From positions 7,510 through 71,509 of the forward strand of contig NZ_JBARVX010000073.1 of the NCBI RefSeq assembly GCF_049646505.1: 64,000 nt of DNA. The letters run 5' to 3'. Source of the DNA: Microcoleus sp. (GTDB lineage Bacteria > Cyanobacteriota > Cyanobacteriia > Cyanobacteriales > Microcoleaceae). Of this stretch, positions 46,006-57,365 are shown one piece after another. The translations under genes were made by a program, and so were the position numbers. The number at the start of each line of letters is the position of its first letter. The first letter of the stretch is position 1. The notes beneath the pieces are model-generated. The model made no database searches. It saw nothing but the letters and a program-made list of their open reading frames with translations, and was not told where the DNA came from.

Positions 46006-47211
46006 ATGCTAGACCTCCTGCTAATTAGCACTGTCGGATTTCTCGGCAGTTTCGGACACTGCGCGGGAATGTGCGGCCCGCTGACAGTGGCGTTTTCCCT
46101 GTCGGCGACTGGCAAACAAAAAGCTGCTTCCCTGCGCTTTCACCTGCTATTAAATGCGGGAAGAATTGCGGCCTACGCCTTAGTTGGTGCTGCAATTGGC
46201 GGACTGGGTTCGGTATTAATTGCTGGCGGACAAATGGCTGGGACTGGTAGCGGATGGCGGCGGGCGATCGCACTTCTAACAGGTACAATGCTGATTTGGT
46301 TCGGCACAGTCCAAATTAAACCAGATTTGCTGCCCAGATTGCCGCTGTTGCACCCAATTTCGCACGATCGAGTCGGACAAGCAATGAACAAGCTTTCGGC
46401 GCAAAAAAAATGGTGGGTGCCCGTCGCTTTGGGCTTGCTTTGGGGTTTAATTCCCTGCGGTTTCCTCTACGCCGCCCAAATTAAAGCAGCAGAAACCGGA
46501 AATGCGGTTTTGGGCGCGGCAACCATGCTGGCTTTCGGATTGGGAACACTCCCAACCATGCTGGGAGTAGGTTTTTTCGCCGGCAGGTTGAGCGCTGACA
46601 CGCGCAGTCAACTGTTTCGGATGGGCGGCTGGGTGACGGTGGCGATCGGGATTATTACCCTGCTGCGAACCGACGAAATGGTCGATTTGACCGGCCACGC
46701 AGCCCTGCTGTGCTTGATGCTAGCACTGTTGGCGCGTCCCGTTAGCAAGTTTTTGCCGGCACTGCTGCGCTACCGCCGCGCTGTGGGTGTCGGCGCGTTT
46801 ATCCTAGCAGTCGCCCACACGTTTTATATGCTGGATCATACGCTGAAGTGGAATTTTGATGCCGTGTCTTTCATGTTGCCGCAGCATCAGTGGGGAATCC
46901 TAGCTGGGATGCTGTCGCTGCTGTTGATGGTACCTGCAGCGGTAACAAGTGTCGATCGCCTTCAACATTATTTAGGCAAACTCTGGCGAATGCTTCACCT
47001 GTTAACCGTCCCCGCTTTTTTGCTGTCCGCTGTACACGCAGCCCTCATCGGTTCCCACTATTTCGGCGGCTTTGAATCGAAGTTGCACCATCAACTGCTG
47101 ACCGCCGTTTTAGCCGTAGTTGCAGTATTAGTTTTGTGCGTGCGATCGCGCTTATTTTGGTCAATTTTATCACTGGAGAATTTTTATGTTGCGCCTGTCA
47201 AACCAAAATAA
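46006..47211 (+). CDS. Fusion membrane protein: DsbD_2/TauE-like domain (HCxxMCGP) + ferric-reductase-like (MsrQ/YedZ-type, di-His heme b) transmembrane domain
   Basis: N-terminus LGSFGHCAGMCGPLTVAF. C-terminal half has FILAVAHTFYML and LHLLTVPAFLLSAVHAALIG, which are conserved His-bearing helices. About 12 TM segments in total. Confidence 0.7.
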   Translation: MLDLLLISTVGFLGSFGHCAGMCGPLTVAFSLSATGKQKAASLRFHLLLNAGRIAAYALVGAAIGGLGSVLIAGGQMAGTGSGWRRAIALLTGTMLIWFGTVQIKPDLLPRLPLLHPISHDRVGQAMNKLSAQKKWWVPVALGLLWGLIPCGFLYAAQIKAAETGNAVLGAATMLAFGLGTLPTMLGVGFFAGRLSADTRSQLFRMGGWVTVAIGIITLLRTDEMVDLTGHAALLCLMLALLARPVSKFLPALLRYRRAVGVGAFILAVAHTFYMLDHTLKWNFDAVSFMLPQHQWGILAGMLSLLLMVPAAVTSVDRLQHYLGKLWRMLHLLTVPAFLLSAVHAALIGSHYFGGFESKLHHQLLTAVLAVVAVLVLCVRSRLFWSILSLENFYVAPVKPK

Positions 47212-47659
47212 AATTTTGGGAATATTAGTTTTTTTAGGATTGCTCATTGAAGCAGCAATTCCCACAGCACCACACTTCAATTCAACTTCTGTTCTGGCCC
47301 ACGAAGTCGAAGTTTCCGGCGATGTAGCCGCTACCTTTCACCTAGAACCCAACCACAACCCCCGCGCCGGAGAAACCGCCAGAGTTTGGTTTGCCCTGAC
47401 TCGCAGGGGCGGTCAAATAATCCCACTAGAGCAGTGTAACTGCAAATTAGCGGTATATCCGAAACAACACAAACAGGGGGATAAGCCCCTGATGCAGCCG
47501 CCTCTTAAAGCCATATCTGCCGAGAAATACAGAGGCATTCCGGGAGCCGATATCGTATTTCCCAAAGCTGGCATTTACGAACTTCAATTGAGCGGAACAG
47601 CAAAAACCGCAGCTAATTTTAAACCCTTCAAACTGAGTTATACAGTCACAGTTCGCTAA
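47186..47659 (+). CDS. Small exported protein, possible metal (Cu)-binding beta-sandwich (YcnI/CopC/FixH-like; tentative)
   Basis: Signal-peptide-like N-terminus ending VLA|HEVEV would expose an N-terminal His. HLEPNHNP and CNC motifs present. GGAG Shine-Dalgarno 7 nt upstream. Overlaps the preceding gene by 26 nt. Confidence 0.55.
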   Translation: MLRLSNQNKILGILVFLGLLIEAAIPTAPHFNSTSVLAHEVEVSGDVAATFHLEPNHNPRAGETARVWFALTRRGGQIIPLEQCNCKLAVYPKQHKQGDKPLMQPPLKAISAEKYRGIPGADIVFPKAGIYELQLSGTAKTAANFKPFKLSYTVTVR

Positions 47660-50485: not shown

Positions 50486-51715
50486 TTAAGGAATCAAGTC
50501 TTCACTGCGAACGAATGGGTCGATAAAAGCAGGATTTGTAATAAAAGCTTCATCAGTTAAACTGTGCAAAAAAGCCAACAAATCGCGCTGTTCTTGCACG
50601 TTGAGTTTGAAGCCAGAAACAAAGTTACTTTTGAGCGGATTTTCGCTACCTATTCCCGCAAATTCTCCTTTTTTAATAGTTCTGCCACCCGCTTTGTAGT
50701 GGCCGATAACTTCTGGCAAGGTTTTGATACTTCCGTCGTGCATATAAGGTGCTGTCAAAGCAATATTTCGCAGGGTTGGTGCTTTGAATTTGCCCATGTC
50801 CGAGGGTTCGCTGGTGATTTCGTATACTCCAGTATTTTTGGGCGGATAAGCGCCTTTGCCGTCAAGATTGTACAATCCTGTATTGTGAAAGGCTATTTCT
50901 TTGAAAGCTAGGCGATCGTGCGCGATCGAATCTGAGAAGTTTAGTCCGCCGTGGCAGTGAAAGCATTCTAAACGTTCGCTGTTAAATAATTCTTCGCCCC
51001 GCTTGGCTGAAGCTGAAATCGCACCGGAGTCGCCGTTGTAGCGGTATCTGTCGTAGGGAGAAGTCAGGGAAATTAAAGTGCGTTCAAAAGAGGCGATCGC
51101 CTTTGCTAAATTGCTAATATTAATAGGATTGGGTTCTTGACTAAAAGCTGCTGCAAACATTTTTTGGTATTGAGAATCCGATCGCAATATTAGCAAAAGT
51201 TCCTGTTCTTTCCCTACCATTCCCATTTCTACGGGGTGTTCGCCAAACAAAGGTACTAATAGCTGAGATTCTAGTTTATTTTGTAGCGGATTTGCCCAAG
51301 TTAGCACGGAATTGTAACCAATGTTGGCTAAACTCATAGCATTGCGCGGGTGTTTTTCTCCGGTTGCGCCGACTCCTACTGTTTTGCCATCGGTGAAAGC
51401 TTTCGCTTGAATGTGACAGGAAGCGCAGGAAAATTCTCCTGTGACTGACAGGCGTTTTTCGTAGAAAAGATATCTGCCTAATTCAACTTTTTCTTGGCTG
51501 ATTGGGTTGTCGGCTGGTACAATTGGTTTTGGTATTCCAGCGGGAATGTTCCAATTGTAAGTAGGATCGGGTGGATTTGCTAAACTGGAATTTGTGGAGG
51601 ATAATACTGCACTCAAACTCATTGCTAGGAAGCATGATAAAATGCAGATAATAGTCAGAGTTGATAATTTTTTCCGCTTCATTTGATGTTTTGTAAGTAG
51701 CCGGCGGTTTGACAA
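50486..51715 (-). CDS. mbnH: MbnH-family di-haem cytochrome c peroxidase/MauG-like enzyme
   Basis: Two CxxCH motifs (CASCHIQ, CFHCHGG) and [17 protein letters not shown]. The likely true start is the MKRKKL ATG near 51679, which is followed by a signal peptide. Confidence 0.85.
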
Positions 51716-51743
51716 TTACATAGAGATTGAGGTGTGTCATAAA

Positions 51744-51794
51744 CAGAGGCAGAGCCTCCGGATCTGCATTACCAGGCAGAGCCTGGTAACGAGC
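51744..51794. repeat. Family A core repeat (solo) between mbnP and mbnH
   Basis: gaggcagagcctccggatctgcattaccaggcagagcctggtaacgag. It is followed by a ccgcagag-type repeat and a 14-bp inverted-repeat element (ggcgttgctga...tcagcaacgcc, 51867-51981). Confidence 0.85.
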
Positions 51795-52003
51795 AATTTC
51801 ACATTACCACAAGACCTCTCTTCCCTCTTCTCTCTGCGCCAAGAGCGCCCTCTGCGGTAAAAAAAAGGCGTTGCTGATTCATGGTATGAATCAACTTTGC
51901 GCTTGATGTTACAAAGCTCACCATACTTGGCTTATAGCAATTGGGAAATCTTGAATTCATATTTGTATTCAGCAACGCCGCAATTTCAATGCGCGACAGC
52001 TTA

Positions 52004-52954
52004 TTACTTAACTTGAAAGAAAGTTTGTCCCGCAGCAGGTTTATTTCCAAATGGCAAACCTAAGTTTTTCATAATTCCGGCGCAGTCGCCGTCATTCGGT
52101 TCCGACATACATCCGGGCGGAGTATTGGCTTGATTTGCTGTTAAATTAGTTTGAGAAACTAGGGATTTTAGGTCAGCAATAACTGTATTGTTTGTCGGAT
52201 CGAAATTGCTAAAAATTACTTGGGATGTGTTAGGAATTGCACAAATATTCGGCTTTTGATTGTTGCCTTCAGCTTTGCATCCCGTGCTGCCTAAATGAAT
52301 CATAAAACCCTGCAATCCGCCACCGTGACTGCCGCCGCGATTGCCTGCGCTGTGAGCAATTTGACTGCTTTCTTTGCCAGATTTGCTGCCGGGATTTTGG
52401 TCAGCAATTTGATTTTTTATGTCAATCCTCAGAAATTTGTAGCCGCCGCGCCAGTTCCACCACAGGGATGTGAGATTGAGGGGCGAAGGTGCGAGACTTG
52501 CGTCTTCGTGATTGAGGCTAAAAGGTACGCCGAGGGTGAATTGCAGGCCTTTGTAGTTGCCTTTAGGTATTGTGCCGATTACTCGATCGCGAATTTCGGC
52601 TGTTCCGTTAGCGCAAGCACCGGATTTGTTCTCAAAATCTAGCAAAGCGACGTTTTGATGCTGCCATTTGCCGTCTTGTTTGAGAGTGAGCGGTACTGCT
52701 TTGCCGCTACCGTCAATTAAACCAACTTCGGATATATAAAAGCGGAAATCTGTAGGGGTAACGGTAGCAGCAGAAGTGCCTAAATTGCTGTAGCTTTCGC
52801 CACAGTTAAAGGATTTTTCACCTACCGCTGCGCTAAATTTAATTTCGATTTCTTGAGTTTCTGCGGCTGTGGCTTGATGCCTGTCAATCGCCCAAAAGCT
52901 GCCCAAAATAGCTGTGCCTGCAAAGGTTGAGGCCAAGATTAGTTGTTTTTTCAT
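52004..52954 (-). CDS. mbnP: MbnP-family periplasmic copper-binding protein (the four-Cys partner of the metallo-mystery pair)
   Basis: Signal peptide present. FRFYISEVGLID, GACANGT and LTSLWWNWRGGYKFLRIDI (the Trp-rich motif holding the Trp converted to kynurenine in characterised MbnP), plus paired Cys. Adjacent to mbnH on the same strand. Confidence 0.85.
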   Translation of the reverse strand: MKKQLILASTFAGTAILGSFWAIDRHQATAAETQEIEIKFSAAVGEKSFNCGESYSNLGTSAATVTPTDFRFYISEVGLIDGSGKAVPLTLKQDGKWQHQNVALLDFENKSGACANGTAEIRDRVIGTIPKGNYKGLQFTLGVPFSLNHEDASLAPSPLNLTSLWWNWRGGYKFLRIDIKNQIADQNPGSKSGKESSQIAHSAGNRGGSHGGGLQGFMIHLGSTGCKAEGNNQKPNICAIPNTSQVIFSNFDPTNNTVIADLKSLVSQTNLTANQANTPPGCMSEPNDGDCAGIMKNLGLPFGNKPAAGQTFFQVK

Positions 52955-53018
52955 TTAGGGATACTTAAAATACCAACTCAGGTAATTCCGGCCTGATTTT
53001 TACACTTTTTGCTGCAAC

Positions 53019-53040
53019 TGTCAAATGACGGCTTGTCAAA
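53019..53040 (-). promoter_or_regulatory. Operator/promoter motif TTTGACAagccGTCATTTGACA upstream of mbnP
   Basis: On the minus strand, the second TTGACA lies 16-17 nt before TAAAAA/AAAAAT. The perfect dyad GTCA-TT-TGAC (plus-strand coordinates 53020-53029) overlaps the -35. It is 65 nt 5' of ATG 52954. Confidence 0.55.
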
Positions 53041-53133
53041 CTTGTAAATAGCAAAGTTTATGATTAAGCCTTTCTAAAGAAACGGTCGATAAAAAGCCTT
53101 GATGATGTATTGTCGATCGATAATTAATTACAT

Positions 53134-53255
53134 TAGACCTCTTGCAAAAGTCCTTTTAATCAAATTTTGGGACGGGCTAGAAGCCCATCCCACAAGAAAA
53201 AAGATTTTTATGGGATGGCTTCTAGCCGGTCCTAACTATTTTTGCAAGAAGTCTA
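53134..53255. mobile_element. MITE, family C (TIR TAGACCTCTTGCAAAA; core gggacgggctagaagcccatccc)
   Basis: tagacctcttgcaaaag...ttttgcaagaagtcta terminal inverted repeats with nested hairpins. It sits between the mbnP promoter and the blaI-like gene. Confidence 0.8.
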
Positions 53256-53261
53256 TTATCC

Positions 53262-53289
53262 CTAAAATCTCAAACCTAAAATCTAAAAT
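53262..53289. repeat. STRR heptamers (CTAAAAT) abutting the BlaI-like start codon
   Basis: ctaaaatctcaaacctaaaatctaaaatcct-ATG. The last 17 nt are identical to those preceding rodA. Confidence 0.9.
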
Positions 53290-53292
53290 CCT

Positions 53293-53715
53293 ATGAATCC
53301 TCTGCCGAATTACCGCCCCAAGCAACTTTCTCTCGGCCCTTTGGAGGCTGAGATTTTAAATATAGTTTGGGAGCTAGAAATTGCTACAGTCAAAGACGTG
53401 CACGATCGCATTTTAGCCGATCCCGATCGCGAATTGGCCTACGCTTCAGTCACAACAGTGCTGCGGCGCTTGACGGAGAAGGGTTGGCTGGTTTGTAACA
53501 AAAGCGAAAGGACATTCACTTGGCAACCTTTAGTTTCTGGCGAAGAAGCCCGATCGCTGTTTGCTTGCGATCGCTTGCAGAAGTTCCTAGCAGTTAGCAA
53601 TCCCGATATTGTAGCAGCATTTGCTGACAGCCTCGACCAAGCAACAGTCGAACAATTACAAGAAATTTCCCTTCGCATTCAAGCTGTCCGCCAAGCTAGA
53701 AAGGAGAAAAAATAA
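53293..53715 (+). CDS. BlaI/MecI/CopY-family winged-helix transcriptional repressor (PetR-like)
   Basis: 140 aa. LGPLEAEILNIVWELEIATVKDVHDRI...YASVTTVLRRLTEKGWL is the family signature. The stop overlaps the start of the next gene (TAATG). Confidence 0.85.
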   Translation: MNPLPNYRPKQLSLGPLEAEILNIVWELEIATVKDVHDRILADPDRELAYASVTTVLRRLTEKGWLVCNKSERTFTWQPLVSGEEARSLFACDRLQKFLAVSNPDIVAAFADSLDQATVEQLQEISLRIQAVRQARKEKK

Positions 53716-54554
53716 TGCACTTAATCCTAATTTTATCGGCGTTGATTGCTGCTAGCAGTATGAGAATTAGATGGTCTGTTCATTCAGGAAATTGGGCCCG
53801 CCGCTGGCAGCGATCGCTCTTATTTTTCTTGTTTCCACCGCTGCTGTTGCTCGCGACAGCTATCGCAGTGATTTTTATGGGAACTCAGGGACAAATGGTA
53901 AGATTTTGGGACGGATGGTTTAGCTATTTTCTAGCTGTAACTTTTTTGAGCGTAGCTGCAATTTTGTGCGTCAAGCTAGCGGTAGACGGCCATCTATTTT
54001 TAAAGCAAATTCGCACCTGTCCTCAAAAAAAGATAGCCGGAAAAAATATCAGAATTCTCGACACGCCTGCTCTATTTTCTGCTATAATTGGTTTTTGGAA
54101 AACCGAATTTGCAGTCAGTACGGGATTGTTGAAAACCCTCGACTCAGCTCACCTGCAAGCAGTAATTGCTCACGAACAAGCGCACTACTATTATCGCGAT
54201 ACGTTCTGGTTTTTCTGGCTGGGATGGCTGCGAAAAATTACTTTGTGGCTGCCGAATACACAAGCTTTGTGGGAAGAGTTATTAACGCTGCGGGAATTGC
54301 GGGCTGATGCCAAGGCGGCGGCGGGAGTGGATGGTTTATTGTTAGCAGAAGCTTTGCTGTTAGTGGCGAGTTATCCGCACCGAAATTTTGATGTAGATTG
54401 CGTGGTTGGTGCTGTCGGTTCGCAAAATAGATTGGGAGAGAGGATAGAGGCGCTGTTGGCAGAACCTGAATTAGTTTTAAAGGTAAATAAGTGGTTTTTT
54501 GGTTGGTTGATTTTAACGCTTTTGCCTTTATTGACTGTGCCGTTTCACAGTTGA
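53715..54554 (+). CDS. M56-family (BlaR1-like) membrane zinc metalloprotease without penicillin-binding sensor domain (PetP-like)
   Basis: HEQAH zinc motif (AVIAHEQAHYYYRD) with 4-5 TM helices. Only 279 aa, so there is no extracellular PBP domain. Confidence 0.85.
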   Translation: MHLILILSALIAASSMRIRWSVHSGNWARRWQRSLLFFLFPPLLLLATAIAVIFMGTQGQMVRFWDGWFSYFLAVTFLSVAAILCVKLAVDGHLFLKQIRTCPQKKIAGKNIRILDTPALFSAIIGFWKTEFAVSTGLLKTLDSAHLQAVIAHEQAHYYYRDTFWFFWLGWLRKITLWLPNTQALWEELLTLRELRADAKAAAGVDGLLLAEALLLVASYPHRNFDVDCVVGAVGSQNRLGERIEALLAEPELVLKVNKWFFGWLILTLLPLLTVPFHS

Positions 54555-54762: not shown

Positions 54763-57042
54763 TCATAGCGGAAGCTCGATCGCAAATTCCGTCCCTTCAC
54801 CCAAAACCGAAGTGCAACTCAAGGCTCCGCCGTGTTTTTCAACAACAATTCGGTAGCTGATGGATAACCCTAAACCGGTGCCTTTACCCATCGGTTTTGT
54901 AGTGAAAAATGGGTCAAACAATTGGAGGCGCACGTCTTCTGTCATGCCGGTTGCATTATCGGCAATCCTGATGCAAATACTATTTTCGTTAAGGGCTTCG
55001 GTGCGAATGCTGATAGTTGGTTTCCAGTCGCCGCCCGTTAGCGCAGCCTTCGGAGAGGAACGCTTTTTTTGGTTGCAAGCATCTTCTAGAGCGTCAATGC
55101 TGTTGCTCAGCAGATTCATAAATACCTGATTTAGCTGACCTGCATAACATTCAATTGAGGGAACTTCGCCGTAATTTTTAATTACTTTTATTTCTGGAAA
55201 TTCTGCTCTGGCTCGCAGTTTGTTATGCAAAATTAGCAGCGTGCTGTCTATACCTTCGTGAATGTTGGTAGACTTCTTTACCGAGTCGTCTAAACGCGAG
55301 AAATTTCGCAAACTCAAAACTATTTCTCGAATTCTATCGGCTCCCATTTTCATCGAAGATAATATTTTTATTAAGTCTTCTCTCAGAAATTCTAAATCGA
55401 TGTTTTCAATGTATTCTTGAACTTCTACCGTTGGCTGAGGATAGTATTTTTGATAGAGTTCCACAAGCTGCAGCAAGTCTTTCATGTATTGGGTGGCGTA
55501 GGAAATATTGCCGTAGATAAAACTGACAGGGTTGTTGATTTCGTGAGCCACTCCCGCTACCATTTGACCGAGACTTGACATTTTTTCGGTATGAATTAGA
55601 TGAGATTGGGTTTCTCGGAGTTCTTTGAGAGCGATTTCTAGCTGTTGGGCTCTGTTGTTGGCGATCGCCTCGGAGAGCCGCAAAGCATCCTCCGCTACTT
55701 TGCGCTCTGTGATGTCAAAAATAGCGCCGTTGAGCGATAAAATTTGACCTGCTGCGTTGAAAATGGCTTGACCTTTTTCTGCAACCCACCGCACGTTTCC
55801 GTCGCTGTGAATCAGGCGATATTCGATCGCGTAAGGTTGTTTTGTCTTAATCGCCCGATCGATAATTTGCTCGCTCGGCTCCGCGTCATCGGGATGAACT
55901 AGACTAGAAAAATCCTGCACCGGTTGAATCATAAAGTTAGCTGCCGGATAGCCGGCAATAGCTTCTATGCCGCTGCTGATAAACGTTACGCTCGATCGCC
56001 CTGCCGCGCTGCAACGATAAACTGCACCGGGAATGTTAGAAACTAAGGATCTAAATTCTTGTTCTCTTTCCCGCAAAGCTGCTTCAATTTGCTTGCGGTC
56101 GCTAATGTCGCGAGCAAAGGCGCACTGATATTCTTTACCGTTAAATTCCAAATGGTCGATCGTAATTTCCACCGGAAAAACTCGACCGTACTTAGTGAGG
56201 TGGTGAACTTCAATATTAACCGAACCGCAGCGTTTTAAGACTTTCCAGTGCAAACTCCAAGCTGTTTCGGGAAAATCTGGATTGATGTCGTGCACAGTCA
56301 TCTCGAGCAATTCTGCCGCCGAATATCCCAAGGAAGAGCAAGCAGCGTCGTTGACGTACAAAAATTTACCGTCGGAACCCATCCAGAATACCGCATCTGC
56401 CGATCGGTCGATCGCCAGTTGAGTCAGTTGCAACTTTTCTTCAACCCGCTGGCGGTCGGCAATTTCTTTTTCTAACTGTTCTTCAAGCGAATTGATAGCT
56501 AAAGCGCGATCGACAATAGTGTCTGCAGTGGCAAGGGCGATCGATTGTTTTGACAATTCTCCTGTCTGAAGATCGGGATTTTCCCCATGTTCTTCTAGTT
56601 GTTTTAACGGCAGTTGTTGCAGATTTTCTGTTGGATTAAAACCAGATTCGGCAAGTGCTTTCGGCATCAGGAAGATCGCCACTGCGGCTGAGAACAAAAA
56701 AATCGCCGCACTTGCAGCTTTGAGAGTTACCGACAGCCAATAAATAGAATGCCAAAGCGCCCAAACTTGCGTCAATTCAGCCGCGCCGCAGGCAAAAAAA
56801 CCAACAGCAAACAGCCGTCCAATCTTGCTGCGATCGCCCTGGCGGGTAAAATAAACCAAAGATAGCGCCACAGAGAAATAAGCCAGTGCCGCCAGCGAGT
56901 CAAAAACAGCGTACAGTCGCAACTCCTGCGGCGCGTCGCAGCCGACTGCGGCAGATACAGGAAGTGTTGAAAAAAAAATTGTTAATTGTTCTTGCATAAA
57001 GTTCAAGAAAAAAGTTATTTGCACCAAGGCAAACCCCATCAA
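54763..57042 (-). CDS. Sensor histidine kinase: ETR1-like (ethylene-binding-domain-like) transmembrane module + coiled coil + 2-3 PAS domains + HisKA/HATPase
   Basis: TM region AYFSVALSLVYF...FFACGAAELTQVW parallels Arabidopsis ETR1 AYFSIPLELIYF...IVLCGATHLINLW (from memory). PAS S-boxes present. H-box AGVAHEINNP. G-box GTGLGLSISY. Confidence 0.85.
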   Translation of the reverse strand: MMGFALVQITFFLNFMQEQLTIFFSTLPVSAAVGCDAPQELRLYAVFDSLAALAYFSVALSLVYFTRQGDRSKIGRLFAVGFFACGAAELTQVWALWHSIYWLSVTLKAASAAIFLFSAAVAIFLMPKALAESGFNPTENLQQLPLKQLEEHGENPDLQTGELSKQSIALATADTIVDRALAINSLEEQLEKEIADRQRVEEKLQLTQLAIDRSADAVFWMGSDGKFLYVNDAACSSLGYSAAELLEMTVHDINPDFPETAWSLHWKVLKRCGSVNIEVHHLTKYGRVFPVEITIDHLEFNGKEYQCAFARDISDRKQIEAALREREQEFRSLVSNIPGAVYRCSAAGRSSVTFISSGIEAIAGYPAANFMIQPVQDFSSLVHPDDAEPSEQIIDRAIKTKQPYAIEYRLIHSDGNVRWVAEKGQAIFNAAGQILSLNGAIFDITERKVAEDALRLSEAIANNRAQQLEIALKELRETQSHLIHTEKMSSLGQMVAGVAHEINNPVSFIYGNISYATQYMKDLLQLVELYQKYYPQPTVEVQEYIENIDLEFLREDLIKILSSMKMGADRIREIVLSLRNFSRLDDSVKKSTNIHEGIDSTLLILHNKLRARAEFPEIKVIKNYGEVPSIECYAGQLNQVFMNLLSNSIDALEDACNQKKRSSPKAALTGGDWKPTISIRTEALNENSICIRIADNATGMTEDVRLQLFDPFFTTKPMGKGTGLGLSISYRIVVEKHGGALSCTSVLGEGTEFAIELPL

Positions 57043-57284: not shown

Positions 57285-57365
57285 TAGACCTCTTGCAAAA
57301 ATAATTAGGACGGGCTCTCCGGCCCGTCCGATCAATTGATGAAAAGGATTTTTGCAAGAGGTCTA
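57285..57365. mobile_element. MITE, family C (minimal copy)
   Basis: tagacctcttgcaaaaa...ggacgggctctccggcccgtcc...tttttgcaagaggtcta, with perfect 17-bp TIRs. Confidence 0.85.

Follow-up and report, generated by a model that had tools for sequence, protein, structure and literature searches.

The sensor histidine kinase encoded on the complementary strand at positions 54763-56997 of a 64,000-nucleotide stretch of Microcoleus sp. DNA (RefSeq assembly GCF_049646505.1, contig NZ_JBARVX010000073.1, positions 7,510-71,509 of the forward strand; the whole stretch is hereafter called the window) begins with a transmembrane (TM) domain that probably descends from the cyanobacterial ethylene-binding domain (EBD), no longer has the Cu(I)/ethylene site, and would now serve as a copper-free, ethylene-blind anchor and relay on a PAS-PAS kinase. 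A first-pass annotation of the window had described this region as an ETR1-like EBD module in which the copper-ligating His is replaced by Glu, and had suggested that the resulting Cys/Glu site, lying next to a copper-themed locus, could sense another metal, oxidation state or ligand. Its assignment of the fold family and the His-to-Glu replacement both hold, whereas the replacements at the positions of ETR1 Pro36, Ile62 and Ile35 had been overlooked. The proposed Cys/Glu sensor finds no support, as the Glu is confined to one tip of the orthologue tree, Lys and Trp are the commonest residues at the two positions across the species surveyed, and constraint on the domain is relaxed.

In the Pfam search, the ETR1_N profile (PF25487; gathering cut-off, 27 bits) matched the whole protein with 62.1 bits (E 6e-17) over residues 41-131 of the 759-amino-acid (aa) open reading frame (ORF), and the N-terminal 161 residues alone with 66 bits (E 4e-18). 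The match spans profile positions 3-96 of 97, and a whole-genome scan with the same profile scored the window kinase at 67 bits. BLASTP against ETR1 residues 1-133 gave an E value of 9e-7, in a register that agrees with a MAFFT alignment of the same ETR1 residues, four paralogues from the same genome and 68 orthologues. The profile, which might have placed the region outside the EBD family, placed it inside; together with MAFFT and BLASTP, it bears out the module that had been proposed and identifies the kinase TM domain as a homologue of the plant and cyanobacterial EBD. As in ETR1 and in the cyanobacterial SynEtr1 and GeiEtr1-2, an N-terminal three-helix TM domain is fused to cytoplasmic signaling domains.

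The degenerate ETR1_N-like domain, delimited by the PF25487 match and the alignment to ETR1, lies at positions 56647-56928 on the complementary strand (residues 24-117). Residue numbers of the kinase are counted here from the Met of MQEQ, i.e., in the 744-aa form, while some of the Pfam ranges are given in the numbering of the 759-aa ORF. An AlphaFold2 (AF2) monomer model of residues 1-146, built with 29 orthologues, was of low confidence (predicted local distance difference test score, pLDDT, 52; predicted template modeling score, 0.25), and only its helix boundaries were usable; its secondary structure places the three TM helices at residues 24-52, 59-83, and 85-117. Kyte-Doolittle windows exceeded 1.5 over residues 28-50 and 87-118, which correspond to helices 1 and 3, and helix 2 was below this threshold throughout. 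Loop 1, between helices 1 and 2, holds Arg52, Lys58 and Arg61, as is found where three helices are joined by a cytoplasmic first loop. A sequence search of the PDB found no solved homologue of the TM domain, its best match being a chance one (chymosin, E 0.64).

The residue equivalences to ETR1 were taken from the MAFFT alignment. The numbering of the ETR1 sequence in it agrees with the published positions of Cys4/Cys6, Asp25, Cys65, His69, and Lys91; the three canonical EBD copies of the same genome were used as the cyanobacterial reference. Asp33, Tyr40, Val43, Ala44, Phe67, Cys70, Glu74, and Lys93 of the kinase are paired with Asp25, Tyr32, Ile35, Pro36, Ile62, Cys65, His69, and Lys91 of ETR1, respectively. 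These are the same pairs as proposed in the first-pass annotation for the Asp, the Tyr, the Cys and the His-to-Glu position, both alignment methods placing Glu74 on His69, and the codon positions it gave for the last two are correct. All of the codons are on the complementary strand: GAC for Asp33 (56899-56901), GCG for Ala44 (56866-56868), TTT for Phe67 (56797-56799; placed by the alignment), TGC for Cys70 (56788-56790), GAA for Glu74 (56776-56778), and AAA for Lys93 (56719-56721). Ethylene binding in ETR1 needs seven residues, among which are Pro36 and Ile62 (PMC6682694; PMC6586836). Three of the seven are replaced non-conservatively in the kinase (Pro36 by Ala44, Ile62 by Phe67, and His69 by Glu74), and a fourth, Ile35, which is likewise required along with Pro36 and Ile62 (PMC6682694; PMC6586836), is replaced conservatively by Val43. 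Thus, of the residues expected in a functional ethylene receptor, the equivalents of Cys65, Asp25, Tyr32, and Lys91 are present, while His69, Pro36 and Ile62 are missing. Compared with the ETR1/SynEtr1 type, the loop between helices 1 and 2 is also three residues shorter.

No other His that could take the place of His69 was found, as the sole His in residues 1-130 is His83, which sits in the motif LWHSIYW at the turn between helices 2 and 3, 13 residues past Cys70. As a compensating ligand, His83 was ruled out: the canonical copies that possess His69 also have this His, and one orthologue clade, that of Phorm 46, has Tyr at its place. An upstream start was likewise rejected as the source of a ligand. 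The listed 759-aa ORF opens at a TTG at position 57042, but the 15 residues that it would add (MMGFALVQITFFLNF) include neither Cys nor His, and the orthologues begin with MQEQ.

Could the protein nevertheless be a low-affinity ethylene/copper receptor in which Cys70 and Asp33 are joined by a ligand from the backbone or from water? In ETR1, Asp25 has a share in copper binding, and natural Asp25Asn variants are functional, although with lower affinity (PMC10266040); the window protein does retain the Cys. However, His69, Pro36 and Ile62 are all replaced. In ETR1, both His69 and Cys65 have been linked to the binding of copper, and ethylene is not bound without Pro36 and Ile62 (PMC10266040; PMC6682694; PMC6586836). 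The Cys is also missing from most of the orthologues by species, and ethylene sensing is already provided for by the three canonical receptors of the same genome. We regard such residual binding as extremely improbable.

Those three copies were found in the whole-genome ETR1_N scan, which returned eight matches. The copies on contigs C630, C480 and C269 scored 136-151 bits, compared to 67 bits for the window kinase, and possess all seven ethylene-binding residues plus Lys91 (D-Y-I-P-I-C-H-K) and an N-terminal HGHCYLW motif that is missing from the window kinase. By these features, the organism has three canonical candidate ethylene receptors besides the window kinase, which is the most divergent intact ETR1_N copy of the genome. 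The window kinase and the three canonical kinases have the domain family, the kinase outputs and a WxLWHxxYWLS turn motif in common, and the H-box region of the C630 copy (SEKMSSLGQ..AGVAHEINNP) is similar to that of the window kinase.

The origin of Glu74 was traced in two sets of orthologues. Residues 20-160, used as the query of a word-indexed search, yielded 68 orthologue clusters of the same architecture (628-757 aa, mostly 729-757), whose named members are all from Microcoleus, Tychonema, "Lyngbya sp. CCAP 1446/10" or the filamentous cyanobacterium "Phorm 46," and 40 orthologous loci came from a scan in which each GTDB species was represented by one genome. Among the 68 clusters, the position of His69 is occupied by Gln in 50, Lys in 15 and Glu in three, the last being the kinase's own genome and two entries of Tychonema sp. 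LEGE 07203; among the 40 species loci, it is Lys in 31, Gln in eight and Glu in one. The position of Cys65 is Cys in 52 clusters, Trp in 13, and Asp, Gly or Ala (P0068) in one each; of the species loci, 25 have Trp and the other 15 have Cys. Judging by these counts, the Cys is dispensable within the orthogroup, which differs in this respect from canonical EBDs. The position of Pro36 is Ala in all 68 clusters, that of Asp25 is Asp in 39 species loci and Glu in one, and that of Lys91 is Lys in 40 of 40.

When the full-length proteins were placed in a maximum-likelihood tree, the three rows with Cys/Glu grouped together at one tip, as a clade (Shimodaira-Hasegawa-like approximate likelihood ratio test support, 98) inside the Cys/Gln rows, and the Trp/Lys rows formed a separate derived group. 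The codon at position 74 is GAA here and CAA in the four orthologues whose DNA was compared, a change of one base. Both the nested placement and the single-base difference identify Glu74, as judged from the tree and the codons, as a tip-specific, recent and local substitution from Gln rather than as a new Cys/Glu metal site. The survey of the Glu variant that had been called for returned one of 40 species genomes plus the kinase's own, all within one tip clade.

These results bear on the possibility of a variant metal site built from Cys70 and Glu74, and perhaps Asp33, that would accommodate a harder ion such as Cu(II), Zn(II) or Fe(II), or some other ligand, in a sensor tied to the copper locus. 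The Cys and the Glu do lie at i and i+4 of helix 2, where the copper ligands of ETR1 sit, Asp33 is kept, and in the kinase's own genome a PetR/PetP-like pair and MbnP/MbnH lie about 200 bp away. However, the Glu is found in one of 40 species plus the own genome and is derived from Gln at a tree tip, the nearest Glu-bearing relative (L055) lacks a copper cassette next to its kinase gene, and Cys has given way to Trp in 25 of 40 species in a domain under relaxed constraint. Furthermore, the kinase and the petP-like gene are convergent and therefore not co-transcribed, and the cassette brings a copper-responsive regulator type of its own (bioRxiv 10.1101/2020.07.31.226407). A variant metal site is thus very unlikely.

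Loss of the His is rare in the family at large. A phmmer search of 1.84 billion representatives (clustered at 50% identity) returned 2514 proteins at E<=0.001; among the best 150 of the 2514, Cys is present in 150 and His also in 147, and the three without His are those closest to the window kinase. This is in agreement with the literature, where both Cys and His are described as highly conserved over 1,221 EBD sequences (PMC10266040), and no description of His-less EBD variants was found in the literature searched for such variants. The His-less and often Cys-less lineage represents a known kind in a new, degenerate form and not a new type of system. Single-ligand losses were also observed elsewhere: Cys is replaced by Arg or Gly in the family of the C308 copy and by Gly in G016:C1:4160551, and His by Arg in G017:C60:15518. 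Loss of the copper site has therefore been repeated and independent across paralogue lineages. Like the window kinase, these other degenerate Oscillatoriales paralogues are ETR1_N matches that miss one copper ligand, but they belong to separate orthogroups, are 642-1159 aa long, have lost other residues, and none has Glu at the position of His69.

Several of the remaining matches in the kinase's own genome are degenerate as well. The copy on C308 (87 bits; L004, C308:5012-5287, in a 1159-aa ORF) has lost Tyr32, Cys65 and Lys91 and kept the His (D-D-I-P-F-R-H-A), while its orthologues in relatives read D-Y-I-P-F-G-H-A, an independent loss of the copper site. Two of the eight matches are short pieces beside the C269 copy and one further match is below the cut-off. 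The two pieces (L006/L007, C269:15200-15495) score 30-34 bits and are found immediately upstream of the canonical EBD gene (C269:14314-14601); one of them contains an internal TGA and an Arg at the position of His69 (..CCGITRVIEIWTLRHPN). At the corresponding place in G003:C20, G010:C37 and G011:C162, two intact EBD genes stand in tandem, and the pieces look like a pseudogenized tandem copy. In the sub-threshold match (L008, C636:7339-7512; 20 bits), which belongs to the N-terminus of a multi-PAS protein of great length, one TM helix carries a C-x3-H motif (SCALGH); the match could be due to a remote relationship with the EBD or to chance.

Selection on the domain was estimated as ratios of nonsynonymous to synonymous substitution rates (dN/dS) by the pairwise Nei-Gojobori method, with five orthologous genes for the window kinase and, as a control, the canonical C630-type EBD kinase from seven genomes of the same genus. 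For the window kinase, dN/dS was 0.37-0.73 in the TM domain and 0.41-1.10 in the linker, compared to 0.15-0.24 in the PAS domains and 0.11-0.18 in the kinase core. In the control, which is a different gene, the EBD was the most constrained part of the protein, with a median dN/dS of 0.14 vs. 0.26 for the rest. The TM domain is therefore the fastest-evolving structured part of the window kinase, with only the short linker equally fast, whereas the EBD is the slowest-evolving part of the canonical paralogue. By these estimates, constraint on the TM domain is clearly relaxed, though not absent. In the 29-sequence alignment, Phe32, Asp33, Ala37, Ala44, Leu47, Val48, Arg52, Lys58, Trp79, Trp87, Ser89, and Lys93 are invariant and Tyr40 is nearly so, while Cys70 and position 74 are variable.

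It should be noted that several points weigh against a simple loss of function. That copper and ethylene binding are lost is read from the residues and the evolutionary rates; the dN/dS values are simple pairwise estimates on five and seven related sequences, and the pairs are non-independent. The AF2 model, given its pLDDT of 52, is too poor for checking side-chain geometry. With dN/dS below 1 and with Asp33, Tyr40 and Lys93 conserved, the domain is still constrained and could have an unrecognized sensing role. The position of His69 is always polar or charged (Q, K, or E) in the middle of the membrane, which hints at a retained function.

The same observations would suit a copper-free domain with a new task, the sensing of a signal borne by the membrane (for instance, a lipid or a small hydrophobic molecule, or the state of the membrane or pH), via Asp33, Tyr40 and Lys93 plus the polar residue at position 74. 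Neither Asp33 nor Lys93 varies and Tyr40 hardly does, position 74 is Q, K or E throughout and never hydrophobic, and the orthogroup, with its dN/dS below 1, has been kept beside pepA in all 40 species loci. Constraint on the TM domain is, however, three to four times weaker than that on the PAS and kinase domains and no stronger than that on the unstructured linker, the charge of the polar residue varies by clade (K, Q, or E), which is hard to square with one defined ligand, and the gene context yields no candidate for a ligand. We therefore consider a repurposed sensor unlikely. Somewhat in the same vein, and rather doubtful as well, the lineage without copper ligands, with the Asp25-Lys91 output relay and the constantly polar residue at the position of His69 retained, could be an intramembrane sensor of a non-metal signal, or else a ligand-blind partner that tunes the three canonical receptors in mixed dimers; the latter, if true, would resemble the interactions between plant receptor isoforms.

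Descent from the EBD with loss of the Cu(I)/ethylene site would account for the kinase as follows. The orthogroup, which occurs in Microcoleus, Tychonema and related filamentous cyanobacteria, has kept the three-helix scaffold and the equivalents of Asp25, Tyr32 and Lys91, with Pro36 and Ile62 replaced, and in most species Trp stands at the position of Cys65. His69 would first have become Gln, from which one large clade later went on to Lys and the Tychonema-like tip clade to Glu. Position 74 would have been freed from ligand-binding constraint, Glu74 being a one-base, lineage-specific change at this position. The TM domain would then anchor and dimerize the kinase in the membrane, where the Asp33-Lys93 pair may still relay the conformational state, as the Asp25-Lys91 pair is the proposed output relay in ETR1 (PMC10266040). 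Signal input would most likely come from the two well-conserved cytoplasmic PAS domains, leading to autophosphorylation at His485 and then to signaling toward an unlinked response regulator. The neighboring copper genes would be under their own PetR/PetP-type pair and have no functional tie to the kinase.

The kinase gene encodes 744 aa plus a stop codon, as established from the ORF list, the Pfam matches and a check of the translation; the database protein P0001 (744 aa) is identical to the window kinase, and P0001 and all of the orthologues begin at the ATG that encodes MQEQLTIFF. The order of domains in Pfam is the ETR1_N-like TM domain, a linker, two PAS domains, HisKA, and HATPase_c. On the complementary strand, PAS domain 1 lies at positions 56098-56421 (approximately residues 193-300; PAS_9/PAS at 208-315 of the 759-aa ORF), PAS domain 2 at 55723-55986 (approximately residues 338-425; PAS_3 at 353-440 of the same ORF), and the kinase core of HisKA and HATPase_c at 54766-55572, with the H-box AHEINNP and the codon of His485 at 55543-55545. 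HisKA scored 29.7 bits and HATPase_c 74.6 bits, as is found in two-component sensor histidine kinases, while the NCBIfam matches were generic histidine-kinase and PAS ones only, every one under its family cut-off. No response regulator adjoins the kinase gene.

The copper theme of the first-pass annotation came from the neighboring genes, and a copper-themed set does lie there. A BlaI/BlaR1-like pair, a putative counterpart of the PetR/PetP copper switch described in Synechocystis (bioRxiv 10.1101/2020.07.31.226407), lies at positions 53293-54554 on the forward strand, where its two genes are translationally coupled and the kinase gene converges on them from about 200 bp away. Beyond the pair are MbnP and a di-heme MauG/MbnH-like peroxidase, then cydAB, and then a DsbD_2/ferric-reductase fusion. 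PetR/PetP is a separate and self-contained protease/repressor system, and its adjacency to the kinase is variable in relatives. PetR/PetP-like genes are found within 4.2 kb downstream of the kinase in 10 of the 40 species loci, a count to be read with the reservation, which also speaks against our interpretation, that where other genes fill this flank the cassette may lie farther away, as in L009. In L055 (Tychonema sp. LEGE 07203, the only other bearer of the Glu), L054, L088, and L011, cydBA directly follows the kinase without a cassette; in L010, the two are separated by a single DUF4058 gene, again without a cassette; and in L009 (Microcoleus sp. S36b_A3), a 1791-aa Ser/Thr-kinase/GAF/histidine-kinase gene separates the kinase from the cassette. 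The copper locus is thus convergent with the kinase, near it in 10 of 40 loci and missing from five of the loci named here, so that neither its adjacency nor its co-orientation with the kinase is conserved. The conserved backbone runs SLT-pepA-kinase-cydBA, with the copper cassette as a variable insertion into it. As the cassette varies among relatives, its adjacency gives no support for functional coupling, and the link drawn earlier between the kinase and the copper locus is likewise unsupported, the cassette being convergent and not a conserved neighbor.

At positions 50486-54554 of the window, the PetR/PetP-like pair and MbnP/MbnH behave as one cassette, found between the kinase and cydBA in some Microcoleus and Tychonema only; in L086, the regulator pair is present without MbnP/MbnH. 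Genes with Ser/Thr-kinase, AAA_16, GAF, and HATPase domains, such as that of L009, are found near the kinase and the cassette at L009:10350-15725 (1791 aa) and L012:6271-11409 (>2098 aa), and are not present in the window. A 157-aa ORF without a Pfam match (47186-47659, forward strand) overlaps the end of the DsbD_2/ferric-reductase fusion; a 157-aa gene is at the same position in L011, and the ORF is therefore a conserved partner. On the other side of the kinase, pepA lies upstream on the same strand in the window, across a gap of 611 bp, and is upstream of the kinase in 40 of 40 species loci. This spacer holds a strong terminator-like, GC-rich hairpin (GGACGGGC...GCCCGTCC) followed by a T-run (57308-57329, complementary strand), which was detected in a consensus scan only, as well as spurious ORFs of 84-100 aa. 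Because of the gap and the hairpin, co-transcription with pepA is unlikely, which suggests that the kinase gene is its own transcription unit.

On present evidence, the kinase should stay outside the candidate copper regulon. For annotation, a Pfam ETR1_N match is insufficient to call a protein an ethylene receptor: genomes of the Microcoleus type carry canonical copies together with several degenerate paralogues, and without a check of the seven residues too many receptors will be counted in cyanobacteria. For receptor biology, and in a domain that still lacks a solved structure, the orthogroup is a natural experiment: with the copper ligands gone and the Asp25-Lys91 pair kept, it could help to separate ligand binding from signal relay.

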